From positions 1 through 33,294 of the forward strand of contig CAYOOH010000001.1 in assembly GCA_964405545.1 (NCBI GenBank): DNA of 33,294 nt, given 5' to 3'. Positions 378 to 6,621 of this stretch are shown in pieces. The position numbers and the translations under genes were made by a program. Below the pieces are notes generated by a model. That model searched no databases. It was not told the DNA's origin and saw nothing but the letters and a program-made list of their open reading frames with translations. Source of the stretch: an uncultured Candidatus Saccharimonadales bacterium (GTDB lineage Bacteria > Patescibacteriota > Saccharimonadia > UBA4664). Position 1 is the first letter of the stretch, and each line of letters opens with the position of its first letter.

Positions 378-662
378 ATGACAGAGCCACAAATTATGAA
401 GAAGGGTGTGCGAGCCATAACCAACGGGCATGTTATCCAGCTCGGCCCGCTGGAGCGGGAAAAAGATCTTGAGCATGAGCTGATCCATGTAGAGCAAGCG
501 GAACGGGAGCCCTTTATTCACCCACTGCTGTACCTTGTAGAATCTCGCAAGCACGGATACCGTCAAAACAAATACGAGGACGAGGCCTACACAAGGGCGA
601 GTAACGAATATAAGAGCACCAAGCCTACTAAAGCCTTTATTCCGCCTGTTCGCGAAGAATAG
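378..662 (+). CDS. small stand-alone DUF4157-like HExxH (putative Zn-metallopeptidase-like) protein, 94 aa
   Basis: GGAAGGA SD about 8 nt upstream of the ATG. The motif RAITNGHVIQLGP...EHELIHVEQ matches the DUF4157 signature (AfTxGxxIxfg ... HELxHVxQ). The 3' end overlaps the convergent STAS-like gene by 26 nt. Confidence 0.6.
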   Translation: MTEPQIMKKGVRAITNGHVIQLGPLEREKDLEHELIHVEQAEREPFIHPLLYLVESRKHGYRQNKYEDEAYTRASNEYKSTKPTKAFIPPVREE

Positions 663-903
663 CTATCGTGGCTTTTACCGACGGGTTGTCGCTTGGCATA
701 TAAGTAACCCGATCGCCATAGATCTCTTCTAGCGCCCTAAAGAATTCATCGGCCCAAGAGGGCGCAAGCGAAATAACGCCACTGAAATCGATTTCTATAT
801 GGGTTTCAGTAGGGCTTAGGGTTGGGCGTATTGCCGCAAAGGCTTCCCTGCCGGCTGGGCGGGAGGTAAGAACGTCTCCGAATTTTTTTAATTCGATTAT
901 CAT
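637..903 (-). CDS. STAS-like DUF4325 domain protein (anti-sigma-antagonist fold), 88 aa
   Basis: The whole length fits the DUF4325 pattern: LTSRPAGREAF...HIEIDFSGVISLAPSWADEFFRAL. The start lies 2 nt after the stop of the upstream GHKL gene, so the two look operonic. Confidence 0.8.
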   Translation of the reverse strand: MIIELKKFGDVLTSRPAGREAFAAIRPTLSPTETHIEIDFSGVISLAPSWADEFFRALEEIYGDRVTYMPSDNPSVKATIAILREQAE

Positions 904-905
904 AA

Positions 906-1637
906 TTAATACTCAATCCTAGCTAATGTACCGCGAATGAAATGGTCTGCGAGCCTTACCTTTAGTTCTTTGGGACCTTCTTTTTCAATTGTGGCGATTG
1001 CTACCCCTGATTGCAAAGCAATCCCTATTGGATTCTGCATTGCTACCGTTCGCACAAACTTTAGGCCGTTTCCTCTTTGCTCAGGAGTTCTGCCTGATAC
1101 AAACTCTGTCATAGCGATGGTTAGTGCCTCGATGTCGTCTTTCATTTCCGGACGCACTCTTAGTAATGTGGTCTTGATCCCCACCCCTCGATCAGCCAGG
1201 ACAACGATGCGCTTATTTAAATCATAACTGAAGAATAGGCCTGGTGTGTCGGGCCAATTCCCTAAGTTATGATCAAATGAATTGTTGCCAATTTCTCCCG
1301 CCACGGCTGTGACTAGTGAGGCCGCCTCAAAGTTCTGAGGACTTTGGTTTATCAAGCTAGCCATTCGGTCCAGTCTAGCCCTAAATCTATCCTGTGTATC
1401 GGAGTAATCCGTAGAAGGGAGGTCAGGCGCTACTTCACTCGCCGCCCATACTTGTGCCAGTCTAAAAAGCTCGGTGTTATAACGTTCGAGCGCATCCCTG
1501 TGATAGTACCGATGTCCACCAGGGCTTTTTAGCGCGGGTAATTTTCCCGACTCGTCCCACCGACGCAAGGTCATTACTGTGACGCCTAGATACTTTGCGG
1601 CTTCACTTATTGGCACTAAGTTGTTGTGTCTGGGCAT
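906..1637 (-). CDS. MerR/excisionase-type HTH fused to an RsbW/SpoIIAB-like GHKL (HATPase_c) ATPase/kinase domain, 243 aa
   Basis: N-terminal HTH: VPISEAAKYLGVTVMTLRRWDESGKLPALKSPGGHRYY. N-box GEIGNNSFDHN, G1 DRGVGI, G2 GNGLKF. Start moved to the ATG at 1637 (MPRHNN...), because the track ORF start at 1685 adds an implausible hydrophobic leader. Confidence 0.8.
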   Translation of the reverse strand: MPRHNNLVPISEAAKYLGVTVMTLRRWDESGKLPALKSPGGHRYYHRDALERYNTELFRLAQVWAASEVAPDLPSTDYSDTQDRFRARLDRMASLINQSPQNFEAASLVTAVAGEIGNNSFDHNLGNWPDTPGLFFSYDLNKRIVVLADRGVGIKTTLLRVRPEMKDDIEALTIAMTEFVSGRTPEQRGNGLKFVRTVAMQNPIGIALQSGVAIATIEKEGPKELKVRLADHFIRGTLARIEY

Positions 1638-1718
1638 GTATAGATTTTGCATCAAAACTATACAAAATGTCAAATATCTATACATTTTTGGGTTTTGAGG
1701 CTGCTTTTGTATAGTTTT
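1638..1718. promoter_or_regulatory. cluster of four AAAA(C/T)CTATAC sites, including a perfect 14-bp inverted repeat; candidate operator array for the MerR-HTH protein
   Basis: AAAACTATACAAAA lies at 1654-1667 (+) and its exact reverse complement at 1705-1718. Related copies sit at 1638-1648 (complement, abutting the start codon) and 1673-1688 (+). A TTGACA on the minus strand lies at 1668-1673. Confidence 0.5.
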
Positions 1719-1754: not shown

Positions 1755-1784
1755 GGTTCTAACTTCCGATACGATCCGGAGCCA
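1755..1784 (+). repeat. intergenic motif copy A (GGTTCTAACTT-CCGATACGAT-CCGGAGCCA)
   Basis: 1755-1773 is identical (19/19) to 5014-5032. 1756-1784 matches 2689-2717 at 22/29 positions with no gaps. It contains a small TCCG...CGGA hairpin. Confidence 0.8.
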
Positions 1785-1798
1785 AGGACTTATGCTTA

Positions 1799-1827
1799 AC
1801 GAGGCTTGTTGAGGCCTCGTTTTTGTT
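1799..1827 (+). terminator. rho-independent terminator-like hairpin with no + strand gene upstream
   Basis: ACGAGGC-ttgttgag-GCCTCGT, a 7-bp stem, followed by TTTTGTT. It lies directly after motif copy A. Confidence 0.55.
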
Positions 1828-1842
1828 ACACTCTAGGAATGG

Positions 1843-2034
1843 ATGGTTCTCAGAATAAATAGCCAGGGGTTGGCGGTACAAGAAACAACGAGTTTAGGGT
1901 GGCAAAAAACGTATGCAGAACTTTCGGTTGACGCTGAGCAAGCGACTGAAGGGCCGACTAAAATCGACAAGGGCGGCATCCGCGCGCATGCCCGGAGTAG
2001 AATTGAAACCACTATTACAACATTTCGGATATAA
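1843..2034 (+). CDS. possible small ORF (63 aa) immediately upstream of the HEPN gene
   Basis: AGGA lies 4 nt upstream of the ATG. The stop is 8 nt before the HEPN ATG, which has no SD of its own, so translational coupling is possible. No motif was found, and a 92-aa antisense ORF is also open here. Confidence 0.3.
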   Translation: MVLRINSQGLAVQETTSLGWQKTYAELSVDAEQATEGPTKIDKGGIRAHARSRIETTITTFRI

Positions 2035-2041
2035 TTAGAAT

Positions 2042-2668
2042 ATGACAGGTAGTCAAAGTAAAGACTTAACCAACTACATAGAAAGTGTACGCGAGTGGTA
2101 CCACACGGCACTTACGAGCTTTACTTTATACCAAGGATTAATGATCAAGAAGGCTCCTAATCAAGTCGGCGTGGAAGCGGCACGAAAAAACGTAGGTACT
2201 TGGAATGAGTACAATGGTGTTTTCACGGTTGCACTCAACACAGCAAGGTACTCATCAATCATGAGCCTAGCTGTTTTGTTTATAGACGGGAAAGATAAAG
2301 AAGGAAATCCTTCTATGTCTCTTGCTAATTTACTCGAAGAGGTAGCCGAAAATTATACAGTAGATGGAGTAGAGCTTGAGACCATACGAGAAAAGTTGAG
2401 TAGTAATGAGACAATTGATACCCTAAAGATTCTTCGCAATCAGTACTTGGCACACGCAGATAAGAACCCTGACGAAATCCAGATCAGTGACTCCATGTTC
2501 GAAGGTCTCCTTGCCCTAACGAAACATATTGTGGCTTTCGCAGAGAGGTACATACTTCATTACGATATAGACGATGCCCAGTATAGGCACAATACGACGT
2601 CAGGCAGTAATGTTCAAAATGATGTTTCATTTAGTCTAGATAAACTATTTACCAGACTGCAATCCTGA
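2042..2668 (+). CDS. HEPN-domain protein, AbiU2-like (abortive-infection-type putative RNase), 208 aa
   Basis: C-terminal Rx4-6H HEPN motif in LKILRNQYLAHADKN. The protein is all-helical and of AbiU2-like size. GC is visibly lower than in the flanking genes. Confidence 0.6.
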   Translation: MTGSQSKDLTNYIESVREWYHTALTSFTLYQGLMIKKAPNQVGVEAARKNVGTWNEYNGVFTVALNTARYSSIMSLAVLFIDGKDKEGNPSMSLANLLEEVAENYTVDGVELETIREKLSSNETIDTLKILRNQYLAHADKNPDEIQISDSMFEGLLALTKHIVAFAERYILHYDIDDAQYRHNTTSGSNVQNDVSFSLDKLFTRLQS

Positions 2669-2688
2669 CCAATCCCCCCTTAATTGCA

Positions 2689-2717
2689 GTTCTAACTTTG
2701 TCCGCGACCCGGAGCCA
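2689..2717 (+). repeat. intergenic motif copy B (GTTCTAACTT-TGTCCGCGAC-CCGGAGCCA)
   Basis: It starts 21 nt after the HEPN stop and matches copy A at 22/29 positions in register. It is followed by a weak hairpin plus T-run (AAGCC-13 nt-GGCTT-TTTTT, about 2738-2765). Confidence 0.7.
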
Positions 2718-2806
2718 GTCATTATTTTTACGCAGCAAGCCATCAAAATCGAACGGCTTTTTTTGCTTTGGTTCGGAAAATGCTGGATTAGCTTAAGTAG
2801 TCTTCA

Positions 2807-2835
2807 TTGGAATGTGCAAGAAAAAAGCTTATGCT
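2807..2835 (+). promoter_or_regulatory. sigma70-like promoter for the ABC exporter operon
   Basis: TTGGAA-N17-TATGCT. The CTTATGCTTA string at 2828-2837 also occurs in copy A (1789-1798). Confidence 0.45.
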
Positions 2836-2856
2836 TAGAAAAATTATGAGAGTGTC

Positions 2857-3543
2857 ATGCAAACAGCAGTTGAATTAAAAAACGTGACCCGTATATATAA
2901 ACTGGGCGATGAGGTCTTAAAGGCCCTAGATAGTGTGACATTGACGATTGCGCCGGGCGAGTTTGTAGCGATTACCGGTCCAAGCGGGTCAGGCAAATCA
3001 ACGCTAGCCAATATTATCGGCGGCTTGGACGAGCCGGACGGCGGCAGCGTGACAGTGGCGGGCATGGAGCTAGCCAAGGCGCGCGACAAAGAGCTGTCGA
3101 GCTATCGCAACCACACGATAGGATTTGTGTTTCAGAGCTTTAACTTGCAGGCCACGGCCACAGCGCTGGAGAATGTGATGCTGCCGCTTACCCTTGGTCG
3201 CATGCACAAAAAGGAACGGGTAGCGCGGGCAGAGGAGTGTTTGAAGGCAGTAGGCCTGGGCGACCGTCTGCGGCATAAGCCCACGGAGCTCTCGGGCGGG
3301 CAGCGGCAGCGGGTGGCAATAGCGCGGGCGCTCGCTAATAAGCCCAGCATTATTATTGCCGACGAGCCCACGGGCAACCTAGACAGCGAGCGAGGCAAGG
3401 AGATTATGGCAGTGTTGCGTGACCTGAACCAATCGGGGATTACGCTCATTATTATTACTCACGATGTGGAGGTGGCGAAGATGGCCGGGCGGACGCTATT
3501 TATTAAGGACGGCCATGTGACCGAGAGCGGGAGGGGCAAATAA
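2857..3543 (+). CDS. ABC transporter ATP-binding protein, MacB/LolD/FtsE-like subfamily
   Basis: Walker [10 protein letters not shown], signature [15 protein letters not shown], Walker [14 protein letters not shown]-loop ITHD. Confidence 0.95.
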
Positions 3544-4979
3544 TGCGCAGCATTGATCTAGTGACCACGGCACTGCGGAACCTGCGGCGGCAAAAGCTGC
3601 GGTCGGCGCTGACAATTTTTGCGGTGGTGATTGGGGCTACGAGCGTGACAATCATGCTAGCTTTGGTGACTGGAGTGAAGGGTTTCTTTGTGAACCAGTT
3701 TTCGGCCAATGGCACGCTACAGCAAATTGCTATTTCGTCGCAAACGGACTTGTCGAAGTTTGACGACGGGAATAATGGCGGCAATAACTGCGATAGCTGC
3801 GTCAAGCTAACGGATGAGCTGTGGGGTAAGATCGGGAAGATTCCGCATATAACCGGCGCGGCCCGGCGACTGAGTGGCGGGTCATTTGAGGCCATTACCT
3901 ATAACGGCCAGAAACTGCGGCTGAATCAGGTGGAGGGCTATGACGCCAATGGGGTGGTAACGAACACGATGCTAGCTGGCCGTGATATCCGAGATACCGA
4001 CCTTCAGGGCGTGGTGACGGTGACGTCAGACTATGCCGATAAATGGGGTTTTAAGGGCCGCTATGGGGACCTGGTGGGTAAGTCTGTGAATCTGACATCG
4101 CGGACGTGGTACCAGGGCGTGGGCTATACGCCGGAGCCGCCTCAGATGGGGTCAAATGGTGGTGGCGATAACCGCCCAGAGCAAAAGGCGACCATCCTAG
4201 AGGCAGAGATAGTGGGCGTGGTGGACGGCGGTGATCGTGGCGAAACGGTGCGCGCTCCCCTGCCCTGGGTTATTGGTATGAACTCACAGCAGATGTACCA
4301 AGAAACCGAGGCCGATCGTAAGGCGCGCGAGGACGCCCAGCGGGCCTGCCAGAATCGGCCGGGGGTGTCGTGCCAGGGCGTGCCGCCGCACTTTACGCTG
4401 GTGGTGACAAACTTTGTGACGCAAAACGGCTATAGCGCTTTTACGGCCAAGGTGGATGACCCGGCCAACGCGGCGGCGGCCACGGCGGAGATTAAGAAGC
4501 TGGGAGTAGGAGCGGCCGATGCCCAGAGCCTGATTAAAGCCCAACTGCAGATTTTCAACATTATTAGCTATGTGTTGGGCGGCATTGGCGGAATCGCGCT
4601 GGCGGTGGCGGCCATTGGAGTAATAAACACTATGGTAATGGCCATTTTGGAGCGCACGCGCGAGATCGGCGTAATGCGGGCCTGCGGCGCCACCCGGGTA
4701 ACCATCCGACGGCTGTTTACTATAGAGGCCGGAATGCTGGGCTTTTGGGGTGGCGTGTTTGGCGTGGCGGTGGGCTATGGGCTGACGTTTGTGGCCAATA
4801 TTCTGATTAATCGGCAGCTGTCTTCGGGAGGAGTGCAGGCACATAACATTATTGGTCTGCCGCTCTGGCTGATAGTGGCGGTCATTGGCACTACCACGCT
4901 TATTGGCATGCTCAGTGGTCTGTACCCGGCCTTCCGGGCGGCACGGCTGAACCCCGTGGAAGCACTGCGCTACGAATAG
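3543..4979 (+). CDS. ABC transporter permease, MacB_PCD + FtsX family
   Basis: The ATG overlaps the stop of the ATPase gene (TAATG). The protein has an N-terminal TM segment, a large extracytoplasmic domain and a C-terminal FtsX-type 3-TM bundle (REIGVMRACGATR...LNPVEALRYE). Confidence 0.9.
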   Translation: MRSIDLVTTALRNLRRQKLRSALTIFAVVIGATSVTIMLALVTGVKGFFVNQFSANGTLQQIAISSQTDLSKFDDGNNGGNNCDSCVKLTDELWGKIGKIPHITGAARRLSGGSFEAITYNGQKLRLNQVEGYDANGVVTNTMLAGRDIRDTDLQGVVTVTSDYADKWGFKGRYGDLVGKSVNLTSRTWYQGVGYTPEPPQMGSNGGGDNRPEQKATILEAEIVGVVDGGDRGETVRAPLPWVIGMNSQQMYQETEADRKAREDAQRACQNRPGVSCQGVPPHFTLVVTNFVTQNGYSAFTAKVDDPANAAAATAEIKKLGVGAADAQSLIKAQLQIFNIISYVLGGIGGIALAVAAIGVINTMVMAILERTREIGVMRACGATRVTIRRLFTIEAGMLGFWGGVFGVAVGYGLTFVANILINRQLSSGGVQAHNIIGLPLWLIVAVIGTTTLIGMLSGLYPAFRAARLNPVEALRYE

Positions 4980-4986
4980 CTTTTGG

Positions 4987-5010
4987 GCGGGGTGCGAGAT
5001 GCGGGGTGCG
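4987..5010 (+). repeat. G-rich direct repeat (GCGGGGTGCG x2) / potential G-quadruplex tract
   Basis: GCGGGGTGCG occurs at 4987-4996 and 5001-5010. Together with flanking Gs this gives GGG-C-GGGG-N10-GGGG-TGC-GGG (4985-5012). Confidence 0.5.
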
Positions 5011-5013
5011 GGC

Positions 5014-5032
5014 GGTTCTAACTTCCGATACG
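5014..5032 (+). repeat. intergenic motif copy C (GGTTCTAACTTCCGATACG)
   Basis: Perfect 19-nt direct repeat of 1755-1773, starting 35 nt after the permease stop. Confidence 0.8.
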
Positions 5033-5183
5033 GGACTAAGCTAGGAATTGATCTGCTAAAGCCTTTGGGTGGCCAGCCGCGATGAGATTTTCGCCAGTGG
5101 CGGGATGACCAGATGGTTATTTCTGAAATATACTGGATTAATTTTATTTTTGTGGTATTATTGCCCTGAATTACCGAACTCCT

Positions 5184-5597
5184 TTGAGAAAGGAAATTCT
5201 GGTAGCAGAGATCATCTTCCCTTACCGCCCAAATTCTGACCGGGTTAGTGTGGGCGGGCAGCTTTGCTTGGTGCGGCGGGGACGGTTTGCTATGCACCAT
5301 GAGTTCAGGGTTACGCCCGTTATTTACGCCGGCCGAACCGCGCTGGAATGGCAAGTGAGCTTCATGGTGGAGATACTGACCCTTCCAGATGGAAGGACCG
5401 GTAAAGGTCTGGGTCGGTCTCGTATTACCTTGGCGACTATCAAAGCGGTGGTAGAGGTTTTCATCAACCTGGAACTCTATTTGACGCACGGGAGCCCTGT
5501 TGACCTGATCTTCAATCGACCCGATGAGCCGGACCTTCTGGCTCTGGGTAACCCCGATAATGGTTTGGCGGTGGCATTCCGCGACCACCAGCGGTAG
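5184..5597 (+). CDS. hypothetical protein (137 aa from TTG 5184; 101 aa if it starts at ATG 5292)
   Basis: The frame is open with G-rich first codon positions (RNY-like periodicity). An extended -10 (TGgTATTAT, 5153-5161) lies upstream. No family was recognised and the start is uncertain. The aligned antisense frame is also open but would overlap the permease gene by 0.7 kb. Confidence 0.45.
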   Translation: MRKEILVAEIIFPYRPNSDRVSVGGQLCLVRRGRFAMHHEFRVTPVIYAGRTALEWQVSFMVEILTLPDGRTGKGLGRSRITLATIKAVVEVFINLELYLTHGSPVDLIFNRPDEPDLLALGNPDNGLAVAFRDHQR

Positions 5598-5647
5598 TGA
5601 TGTGCTTTTGCGTACGCCTCAACGGTCACCGTTGGAGCAGCCGGTAC

Positions 5648-5716
5648 GATAACCCGGCGCAGTAACTAGATGTATAGCTAGTCTGATGAGTCTAAAAAGA
5701 CGAAACTGCAGGGATC
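5648..5716 (+). ncRNA. type III hammerhead self-cleaving ribozyme (predicted cleavage between A5664 and A5665)
   Basis: GCAGUA|ACUAG-AUGUAUAG-CUAGU-CUGAUGA-GUC-UAAAAA-GAC-GAAA-CUGC. All core residues are present: C3-A9 at 5683-5689, G12-A14 at 5702-5704, the A15.1-U16.1 pair and the GUA cleavage triplet. Stem I has 5 bp closed by an 8-nt loop. Stem II has 3 bp starting with G10.1-C11.1 and a 6-nt loop. Stem III is open, with 5 bp, and can be extended by CCC/GGG and GAU/AUC pairs. Confidence 0.85.
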
Positions 5717-5799
5717 ACGGAGACCAGACTTACGTCATATCGGATCCTGGAGCCCAAGATAATGCCCAAGCATAGTAGCCAGGGCAGCTCGGCTGGAGG

Positions 5800-6621
5800 C
5801 TAAATGTGTCGGCGATGAACTGAGCCGAATAGTCGAGCTGCGATATAAATAGCAAAGCTAATGGAGGTAACAAGAACGCTGGGCTTGATCGTGCCAAAGG
5901 CGAGGCTGGAGACCAGGCCACCGACGCTTGCGGTGAGGGCAAAGAGAATGGACAGGCCAAGCACCGCCAGGGGTTTGGCCGACAAACGCACGGCGGCTGC
6001 GGCCGGGGTGATTGCTAGGCTCAGGACTAAGAGCGTACCCACGACCTGGGCGACGGCGGTAACGGTAAGCGCCAGAATGAATAGGAATATAATGCCGATG
6101 GCCCTAACATTCACGCCCCGAGCCTCTGCCACATCGGGATCGGTGGATGCGAACAGGAGGGGCCGGTAGATGATGGCCATTGCGACCATCACGCCGGCCG
6201 CAATGATAATGAGGATAACTAGCTGACCAGTCGAGACGCCAAAGATGTTGCCAAAGAGGATGTTGGTGGCCTGGGTAGCAAAGCCGTGGTAAAAGCTCAG
6301 AAGGAGCACGCCGATACCGAGGCCAAAGGCCAAGATGACGCCAATAGACGAGTCGCGTTCGTGCTCGCGGACACCGAGCGTGCCAATGATGCCGGCGACG
6401 ATGAGGGCTCCAACCAGGGCGCCGGCAATGGGGTTGCCGTTGATGAGTAGGCCGGCGGCGGCGCCGGTGAAGGCTAGTTCGCTGGTGCCATGAACGGCAA
6501 AGGACATGCCCCGCGTTATTACAAAGGGACCGATAATGCCGGCAATGATAGCAACAAGGGTAGCGGCGAGAAGGGCGTGCAGAGCAAAAGGCTGGGTAAG
6601 ATAGAAGCCGAGTTCAGTCAT
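5800..6621 (-). CDS. znuB: metal (Zn/Mn) ABC importer permease, ABC-3/ZnuB family
   Basis: Polytopic membrane protein with typical ABC-3 sequence (FALHALLAATLVAI..., TSELAFTGAAAG). Start moved to the ATG at 6621, giving an ATGACTGA overlap with the upstream ATPase stop. Confidence 0.85.
   Translation of the reverse strand: MTELGFYLTQPFALHALLAATLVAIIAGIIGPFVITRGMSFAVHGTSELAFTGAAAGLLINGNPIAGALVGALIVAGIIGTLGVREHERDSSIGVILAFGLGIGVLLLSFYHGFATQATNILFGNIFGVSTGQLVILIIIAAGVMVAMAIIYRPLLFASTDPDVAEARGVNVRAIGIIFLFILALTVTAVAQVVGTLLVLSLAITPAAAAVRLSAKPLAVLGLSILFALTASVGGLVSSLAFGTIKPSVLVTSISFAIYIAARLFGSVHRRHI

Follow-up and report, generated by a model that had tools for sequence, protein, structure and literature searches.

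What kind of element lies between the MacB-type exporter gene and the convergent znuBCA operon of an uncultured Candidatus Saccharimonadales bacterium, where a 0.7-kb interval holds a small open reading frame (ORF) followed by a hammerhead ribozyme, and did it arrive there by insertion into a repeated intergenic motif? The question was addressed in a 33,294-nt stretch of DNA (GenBank assembly GCA_964405545.1, contig CAYOOH010000001.1, positions 1 to 33,294), hereafter called the window. A first-pass annotation had proposed that a small transcription unit was inserted into the motif, of which copies A, B and C were recognised; a unit ending in a hammerhead has been found in all four members of the ORF family (4/4), whereas insertion into a split motif copy was not supported. 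It is probable, in our assessment, that the interval is a conserved accessory unit with its own promoter, a gene for a small beta-rich protein (about 125-137 aa), and a structured 3' untranslated region (3'UTR) of ~100 nt that ends in the hammerhead.

Hundreds of hammerheads were described in bacteria by Perreault et al. in 2011, many of them near integrase genes, and some flank single genes, for which the cutting of long transcripts to gene length has been proposed as a role (PMC3088659). The host examined here belongs to Candidatus Saccharimonadia (TM7, Patescibacteria/candidate phyla radiation, CPR), and a full-text search of one literature collection found no papers on hammerheads in Saccharibacteria or other CPR bacteria.

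The hammerhead and its RNA neighbourhood

The ribozyme was confirmed as the sole Rfam match in the window (RF00008, 41.6 bits, E 6e-6 window-wide); at the gathering score nothing was returned for the whole window, and the hammerhead emerges at the E-value threshold only. It is preceded by conserved structure, for which one hairpin at 5611-5648 had been proposed: the hairpin structure is indeed conserved, but it consists of two hairpins, P-a and P-b. The elements, including those present in minimum free energy (MFE) and centroid folds, are as follows.

5611-5616, plus strand: CGUACG box, which opens the 3'UTR element (CGTA and the final G invariant in 5/5 aligned copies)
5616-5638, plus strand: hairpin P-a (10 pairs, 4 compensatory on both sides, 94% of cells paired; in MFE and centroid folds)
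5640-5658, plus strand: hairpin P-b (5 pairs, 100% paired, conserved loop UACGAUAAC)
5659-5709, plus strand: type III hammerhead (RF00008 alignment 5657-5711)
5659-5663 with 5705-5709, plus strand: stem III
5665-5669 with 5678-5682, plus strand: stem I
5683-5689, plus strand: core CUGAUGA
5690-5693 with 5698-5701, plus strand: stem II, short (4 bp and a tetraloop)
5702-5704, plus strand: GAA

The core is canonical throughout (CUGAUGA, GAAA, and the GUA cleavage triplet, with an A5705-U5663 pair and A5664 as H17), and cleavage is predicted after A5664. MFE and centroid folds of both the isolated 51-mer and the surrounding 125-nt stretch gave a three-way junction in which loops close stems I and II while stem III is open, as in RF00008 type III ribozymes, with which the full catalytic core, A15.1-U16.1, and the GUH triplet are also shared. 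Unlike RF00008, the RNA has sub-gathering scores, a short stem II, and, directly 5' of stem III, two extra conserved hairpins and the CGUACG box.

An alignment of the 3'UTR from five distinct copies (about 120 nt) showed pairing in 97% of cells, compared with 27-47% for slid partners. Double-sided changes occur in five pairs, all of them in P-a (4) and P-b (1), and the one in P-b, from A-U to G-C, occurs in the window copy only. A pseudoknot of loop I with the CGUACG box or the P-b loop was inspected by eye and discarded as inconsistent across copies.

A protein family always followed by the ribozyme

Upstream of this RNA lies an ORF for which the first-pass annotation had given 101-137 aa, together with an extended -10 box, and both have held up.

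5153-5161, plus strand: probable extended -10 box TGgTATTAT, by homology only
5184-5597, plus strand: ORF of the orphan family, 137 codons from TTG 5184 (gene caller: ATG 5292, 101 aa)
5187-5195, plus strand: ribosome-binding region AGAAAGGAA, conserved in the family

The reality of the ORF is supported by its codon usage, by 43 invariant columns in the family alignment, with conserved residues in the N-terminal 36 too, and by a homologous promoter and ribosome-binding site (RBS). With in-frame log-odds of 0.16-0.21 per codon, the ORF falls at the bottom of the span covered by 19 host genes (0.18-0.39) or slightly under it, and it scores well above every other frame save the co-phased antisense frame. 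The -10 box aligns with the boxes TGCTATAAT and TAATATAAT, which stand at an equal distance upstream of the RBS in the related contigs L023, L024, and L025; it was missed by a generic promoter scan, so that its support comes from homology only. The RBS AGAAAGGA is conserved in L024 and L025 (AAAAGAAG in L023), 6-9 nt 5' of the ATG of the homologues.

The family is small. A word-indexed search of 5.8 billion proteins matched only the window's own 101-aa gene call, and 1.84 billion cluster representatives, scanned exhaustively with HMMER, yielded two true homologues, P0002 (127 aa, E 4e-25) and P0003 (125 aa, E 2e-17); three further long matches of the same scan (P0004-P0006) were rejected as repeat-protein artefacts, and a profile search with the family added no members. 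For both homologues the alignment begins at residue 9-11 of the 137-codon form, indicating that this long form is the homologous one. They are encoded on L023 and L024, which represent one locus in two samples, and on L025, and a fourth, paralogous member is found at L024 52-441. The source of L023 is also a member of Saccharibacteria, and the next gene on this contig is 76% identical to a membrane protein 3' of the exporter in the Saccharibacteria metagenome-assembled genome (MAG) L002.

Whether homologues of the ORF are recurrently followed by hammerheads had been posed as a check, and this was the case for 4/4 family members, with an identical RNA layout: the CGUACG box, P-a, P-b, and the hammerhead follow every family ORF in this order. 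The ribozymes in the relatives (41-47 bits) are located as follows.

L023 98-153 and 781-836: hammerheads
L024 498-553 and 1181-1236: hammerheads
L025 1893-1948: hammerhead

Between copies, the hammerheads share 88-96% of their nucleotides, whereas identity among the ORFs is 56-63% at the nucleotide level and 35-48% at the protein level (79% and 67%, respectively, for the L024x and L025 pair), which shows that the RNA is under tighter constraint than the protein. One sequence variant was noted in the first ribozyme of L024, a G-to-A change by which one stem I pair is broken. A covariance model of the 124-nt RNA gave 130-138 bits for the six copies and no further match in 774 kb of Patescibacteria DNA, which covered the eight exporter loci of relatives. 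About 120 further loci with the motif were scanned for a type III hammerhead pattern, and none had one. The discrete unit of promoter, ORF, hairpins, and hammerhead recurs, and has so far been observed in Saccharimonadia only.

Concerning the protein itself, the AlphaFold model of the window copy is too poor for use (predicted local distance difference test, pLDDT, 54), and that of P0002 is confident and beta-rich (pLDDT 85; predicted template modelling score, pTM, 0.80). Foldseek resemblances of the P0002 model to cold-shock domains, SSB, gp32, and LEF-3 are weak and non-significant and do not count as evidence; they give a non-significant hint that the orphan protein might be an OB-like nucleic-acid binder.

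Two diverged paralogous ORF-hammerhead units stand in tandem at L023 42-847 (= L024 442-1247), with their ribozymes 683 nt apart. Such an arrangement, in which two same-strand hammerheads surround one ORF in L023 and L024, brings up the idea that tandem hammerheads release a unit-length RNA that is then circularised in a retrozyme- or viroid-like manner. Hammerhead cleavage gives 5'-OH and 2',3'-cyclic phosphate ends, and RtcB-type ligases join such ends. However, the window has a single hammerhead. In L023 a complete motif, a strong intrinsic terminator, and a promoter lie between the two ribozymes, and at 38% aa identity the tandem units are diverged paralogues instead of repeats. We regard this explanation as extremely unlikely.

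A possible role for cleavage behind the gene

According to the explanation preferred here, an accessory gene with a ribozyme-ended 3'UTR, the hammerhead would cut the nascent transcript after A5664 and leave the mRNA with a 2',3'-cyclic phosphate end just behind two stable hairpins, and P-a and P-b might then shield the cleaved mRNA from 3' exonucleases. The RNA transcribed beyond the cut would be detached; in the relatives it would consist of the recombinase-derived repeat (see below) and a terminator. No terminator-like site was found in 4950-5850 of the window (0 sites), and hence none between the hammerhead and the convergent znuB stop at 5800, which implies that the detached RNA would here be antisense to znuB. 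The biological purpose of 3' cleavage is conjecture, because the orphan protein has no family or fold match.

The mammalian CLEC2 3'UTR hammerhead, a discontinuous ribozyme, reportedly lowers expression through removal of the poly(A) tail by cleavage (Martick et al., 2008). Both ribozymes lie in the 3'UTR of a protein-coding mRNA, where cleavage strips the normal 3' end, whereas the one in the window is compact and bacterial, with hairpins upstream of the predicted cut.

Motif copies and the case for insertion

Insertion into the motif depends on what stands on either side of the unit, for which the following features are relevant.

1755-1795, plus strand: motif copy A (profile E 6e-11), with an intrinsic terminator at 1798-1825 next to it
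2688-2725, plus strand: motif copy B (profile E 4e-8), directly 3' of an AbiU2-like HEPN gene
2857-4979, plus strand: MacB-type exporter, with its stop at 4979, preceding the ORF-hammerhead interval
5014-5032, plus strand: motif copy C, 35 nt past the exporter stop, with diverging sequence to the right
5712-5772, plus strand: post-ribozyme stretch, in which two weak motif-like matches overlap (5713-5732 and 5728-5765)
znuB stop at 5800, minus strand: convergent znuBCA operon, the 3' neighbour of the interval

It is unlikely, in our view, that a 0.7-kb ORF-hammerhead element recombined site-specifically into an A-type motif, whose halves would now stand at 5014-5032 and just past the ribozyme. 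The left side of this proposal is solid, as copy C reproduces the left 19 nt of copy A (GGTTCTAACTTCCGATACG, exact at 1755-1773 and 5014-5032; chance expectation 0), including a core that differs in copy B. A motif profile built solely from twelve non-window copies aligns copy C at 5013-5032 only, i.e., over its left 20 nt (E 0.004), and the minus strand of copy C encodes the ..VRT of the recombinase tail WLRIVxxVRT. Two further points are in favour: the motif is recombinase-derived and resembles scars of attachment (att) sites elsewhere, and the interval 5033-5713 measures about 680 nt, near the 683-nt repeat unit of L023.

The right side is where the proposal is weak. A right half had been placed at 5746-5772, but the profile recovers copies A, B, and the left part of C and nothing 3' of the hammerhead. 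In Smith-Waterman comparisons of copy A with the region against shuffled sequences (p about 0.003-0.02), the best match to the right part was found at 5713-5732 instead, which fits better than 5746-5772. The weak matches that abut the hammerhead, at 5713-5732 (17 positions, with indels) and 5728-5765 (p about 0.003-0.012), could be counted for insertion, whereas the comparison of the post-hammerhead stretch with the homologous stretch of the relatives was non-significant (p 0.03-0.36). The sequence GATCACGGAGACCAGACTTA at 5713-5732 begins 2 nt past the Rfam end at 5711, and its resemblance to the right part of copy A, GATCCGGAGCCAAGGACTTA, is marginal (p about 0.004-0.02). It is possible, and not demonstrable, that 5712-5772 is a decayed motif copy.

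Other expected marks of an insertion did not appear either. The near-inverted 9-mers (8/9) said to bound the interval have a P of about 0.07, and 38 comparable pairs were found within the interval, i.e., they are at chance level. The search for an empty site among the related exporter loci gave 0/8 with znuB or a motif downstream (L002 has a 78-nt spacer, free of the motif, at its exporter locus), and neither a target duplication nor, among the genes of the whole window, a recombinase was found.

Comparison with the relatives points in the same direction. A complete motif and a terminator stand 6-7 nt past the hammerhead in the first unit of L023 (161-199) and in L025 (1955-1990), and the second L023 unit has no motif 3' of its hammerhead; complete motifs on both sides of the unit, or none, were observed, and never halves. 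The motif also ends unrelated genes, as seen for copy B behind the AbiU2-like gene, for a complete copy at L025 139-170, and in L033. The presence of whole motifs in relatives and behind unrelated genes suggests that the motif is usually placed at the 3' end of transcription units, as opposed to being a target that was split. For copy C and, if real, copy D behind the ribozyme, the best reading is that each is the 3' repeat of its own unit, rather than one of the halves of an interrupted site.

Points against a functional unit in the window

Several observations weigh against a conserved accessory unit. The exact 19-nt identity between copies A and C, variable core included, points to recombination at the motif. 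The family amounts to four members from three lineages, and it has no match in Pfam, PHROGs, NCBIfam, PADLOC, or PDB sequences (the NCBIfam search gave recombinase fragments only), while Foldseek with the P0002 model found no match below E 0.001 in PDB or BFVD. None of the six hammerhead copies reaches the gathering score of 48.5 bits (window, 41.6; relatives, 41.3-46.8), although their E-values are 1e-6 to 3e-8, and such copies would be missed by routine annotation. Because the hammerhead stems never vary (13 of 14 pairs in stems I-III are invariant among 5 copies, and the other is a mismatch in L024), covariation is uninformative for stems I-III. Finally, the window ORF reads CTG (5199) where three homologues have ATG, and the window copy has neither a terminator nor an intact downstream motif.

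The loss of the ATG, the terminator, and the motif raises the possibility that the window copy may be decaying. Stated in full, this explanation holds that the copy is a remnant and its ribozyme a relic, with the family being functional elsewhere. The only upstream start, TTG 5184, precedes the conserved RBS, implying either the use of a non-canonical start or an N-terminally truncated, decaying copy; moreover, nothing significant 3' of the hammerhead is shared with the relatives. On the other hand, all 137 codons are open, with conservation extending into the N-terminal 36 residues, codon usage is host-like, and the hammerhead core and both hairpins are intact, with a compensatory change in P-b that is specific to the window copy. 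A low probability is assigned to decay, and a functional accessory unit remains the preferred explanation.

The motif as the tail of a serine-recombinase gene

The motif itself is much more widespread than the unit. The pattern shared by the good copies had at least 120 exact matches in metagenome contigs and none in IMG/VR, and an alignment of 128 distinct copies revealed a conserved block of about 72 nt with a sharp edge after GCCA. Its variable positions keep a codon periodicity on the opposite strand (third codon positions), where the frame reads WLR[IV]V[DN][DN]VRT; most copies then have IIQRQNEYIYIPDL and a stop codon. This frame extends upstream into ORFs of 90-150 aa in five loci, and a profile of these ORFs matches 105 Patescibacteria proteins, several of which have PF13408 or are named recombinase. 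In L147, at the edge of a restriction-modification/OLD island, the C-terminal piece is immediately preceded by an ORF that carries Resolvase, Recombinase, and Zn_ribbon_recom domains. The tail frame, its ORF extensions, and the domain matches indicate that the motif is the coding tail of a large-serine-recombinase gene.

Several other identities were considered and rejected. No Rfam match supports a known RNA in the window or in five motif-rich loci, and ARAGORN detected neither a tRNA nor a tmRNA at any of the copies; manual attempts to fit a tRNA 3' half, a minihelix, or a tmRNA end were unsuccessful. RNAalifold of 125 copies gave no consensus structure on either strand, as opposed to an attC site, and a miniature inverted-repeat transposable element was dismissed for lack of symmetry and terminal inverted repeats.

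Tail-only pieces sit immediately 3' of the stop codons of diverse accessory genes and 5' of terminators; L142 has four of them in 4.5 kb, and L033 is another tail-only case. The pieces may represent att-type scars or the boundaries of cassettes. Past the conserved W-L, the C-terminus is of two kinds, either the genuine tail or the antisense of a tRNA 3' end. Both are present in L147, where the relevant features are as follows.

L147 6993-7991 and 8001-8483: large serine recombinase in two ORF calls, ending in NWLPG and a stop over the tRNA-Gln 3' end
L147 8469-8542, minus strand: tRNA-Gln
L147 6818-6900 and 8395-8542: duplicated stretches

An inverted duplicate of the last ~80 nt of the recombinase, located upstream of the gene, runs on into the genuine tail (WLSVLNKIRTFFRENPDTEF and a stop), and the breakpoint falls exactly after TGGCT, which suggests an att crossover or inversion point within the recombinase ORF.

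Comparable arrangements are known from SSV1-type elements, in which the integrase gene is partitioned at the att site. As with att repeats of this type, the motif is a short direct repeat formed by the 3' end of a recombinase gene, with a sharp edge and a position at the ends of accessory blocks, and the L147 breakpoint lies within the recombinase ORF beside a tRNA. The differences are that a large serine recombinase (PF00239/PF07508/PF13408) takes the place of a tyrosine integrase and that tail-only arrays occur without recombinase bodies. Integron cassettes offer a second likeness, since small single-gene units in one orientation are each followed by a repeat copy (A, B, and C in the window; four in L142), whereas the repeat here has no hairpin symmetry, the units have their own promoter and terminator, and there is no IntI-type integrase.

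In a broader proposal, the motif copies are att scars of a Patescibacteria-wide family of integrative elements, with the crossover within the 3' end of the elements' own large-serine-recombinase gene, just past the W-L codons, and the ORF-hammerhead is a terminal cargo cassette whose hairpin-rich, self-cleaving RNA takes the place of the tRNA 3' end as partner of the recombinase tail or as insulator. We consider it quite unlikely. If it were true, ribozyme cleavage would be part of how an integrative element works, and 1755-5770 would have grown by accretion into an array of three cassettes, with AbiU2, the exporter operon, and the ORF-hammerhead.

A related possibility is that the hammerhead serves such an element and not the ORF, either by insulating a convergent recombinase gene or att site from read-through or by replacing a tRNA 3' end. 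Under the insulator version, once the element is circular, its recombinase gene would terminate antisense to the 3' part of the ribozyme. It may be noted that in L023 and L025 the recombinase-tail frame runs from the motif into the antisense of the hammerhead (WLRIVSEVRTSVVAVSSF and a stop), that the L147 recombinase, which is of the same family, ends antisense to the tRNA-Gln 3' end, and that hammerheads near integrases are a known pattern (PMC3088659). However, an intact recombinase is linked to 0/4 units, the motif is missing from the second L023 unit and from the window copy, and no hammerhead was found in any of the roughly 120 further loci with the motif. We consider this reading very unlikely.

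Surroundings of the unit in the window

The MacB-type exporter is 61-76% identical to proteins of eight Saccharimonadia/Saccharibacteria MAGs. Contigs binned as Candidatus Dormiibacterota (L013, JBARRR010000122.1; L009; L010) have exporter genes that share 46-73% identity with that of Saccharimonadia; as the 1.7-kb L013 fragment is as similar as the true Saccharimonadia relatives, it may be mis-binned or horizontally transferred. Exact-protein look-ups of the window neighbours matched no other contig or record.

The first 2.85 kb of the window have a GC content of 0.39-0.48, compared with 0.55-0.63 beyond. This low-GC block (1-2850) contains the genes listed below, and it is probably an acquired defence-type islet; the remainder of the window consists of ordinary chromosomal genes.

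378-662: 94-aa ORF with an HExxH-like HELIH motif
637-903, minus strand: DUF4325 STAS-like protein
906-1685, minus strand: HTH_17/MerR-type protein with a C-terminal domain resembling phrog_3364
2042-2668: AbiU2-like HEPN protein (sub-threshold Pfam match), with motif copies A and B on either side

Between the MerR-type gene and copy A (1625-1720), four or five boxes centred on TATAC/GTATA were observed (TATAGATTTTG, CTATACAAAATG, CTATACATTTTTG, TTTGTATAGTTTT), which are possibly operator sites. A promoter-like TTGGGT-16-TATAGT in the same segment could drive a short RNA of copy A and its terminator.

Significance for bacterial hammerheads and CPR genomes

The unit behaves as accessory DNA: it is patchy among relatives, tandem in L023, and next to IS30 in L025, and it always stands amid short repeats that are fragments of a serine-recombinase tail. 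The IS30-family transposase gene (HTH_38 and rve) occupies L025 292-1275; a motif copy with its terminator stands on one side of it and the promoter of the unit on the other. The recombinase-derived repeats and IS30 in L025 fit a link between bacterial hammerheads and mobile DNA, which the first-pass annotation had mentioned, and agree with the published catalogue (PMC3088659). As in that catalogue, the ribozyme is found beside one small gene, with recombinase remnants, an insertion sequence, and the tandem arrangement of L023, and the ORF-hammerhead is an instance of the bacterial hammerheads beside single genes in integrase-linked DNA. Two differences stand out: the flanked genes there were 'not constant' (PMC3088659), whereas here one protein family occurs with the ribozyme in 4/4 cases; and the host here is a CPR bacterium without phage genes or matches in IMG/VR or INPHARED. 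More generally, searches of phage and plasmid collections, IMG/VR, and INPHARED with the unit DNA, the hammerhead, the motif, and the protein were empty.

The strict pairing of an orphan protein family with a ribozyme 3'UTR offers a clean natural case for the role of a 3'-terminal hammerhead in bacterial mRNA, a question that dates from the 2011 catalogue and for which end definition, message stabilisation, and insulation from convergent transcription are candidate answers. For the dynamics of CPR genomes, the recombinase-tail repeat behind accessory genes, with its at least 120 metagenome copies, may matter more.

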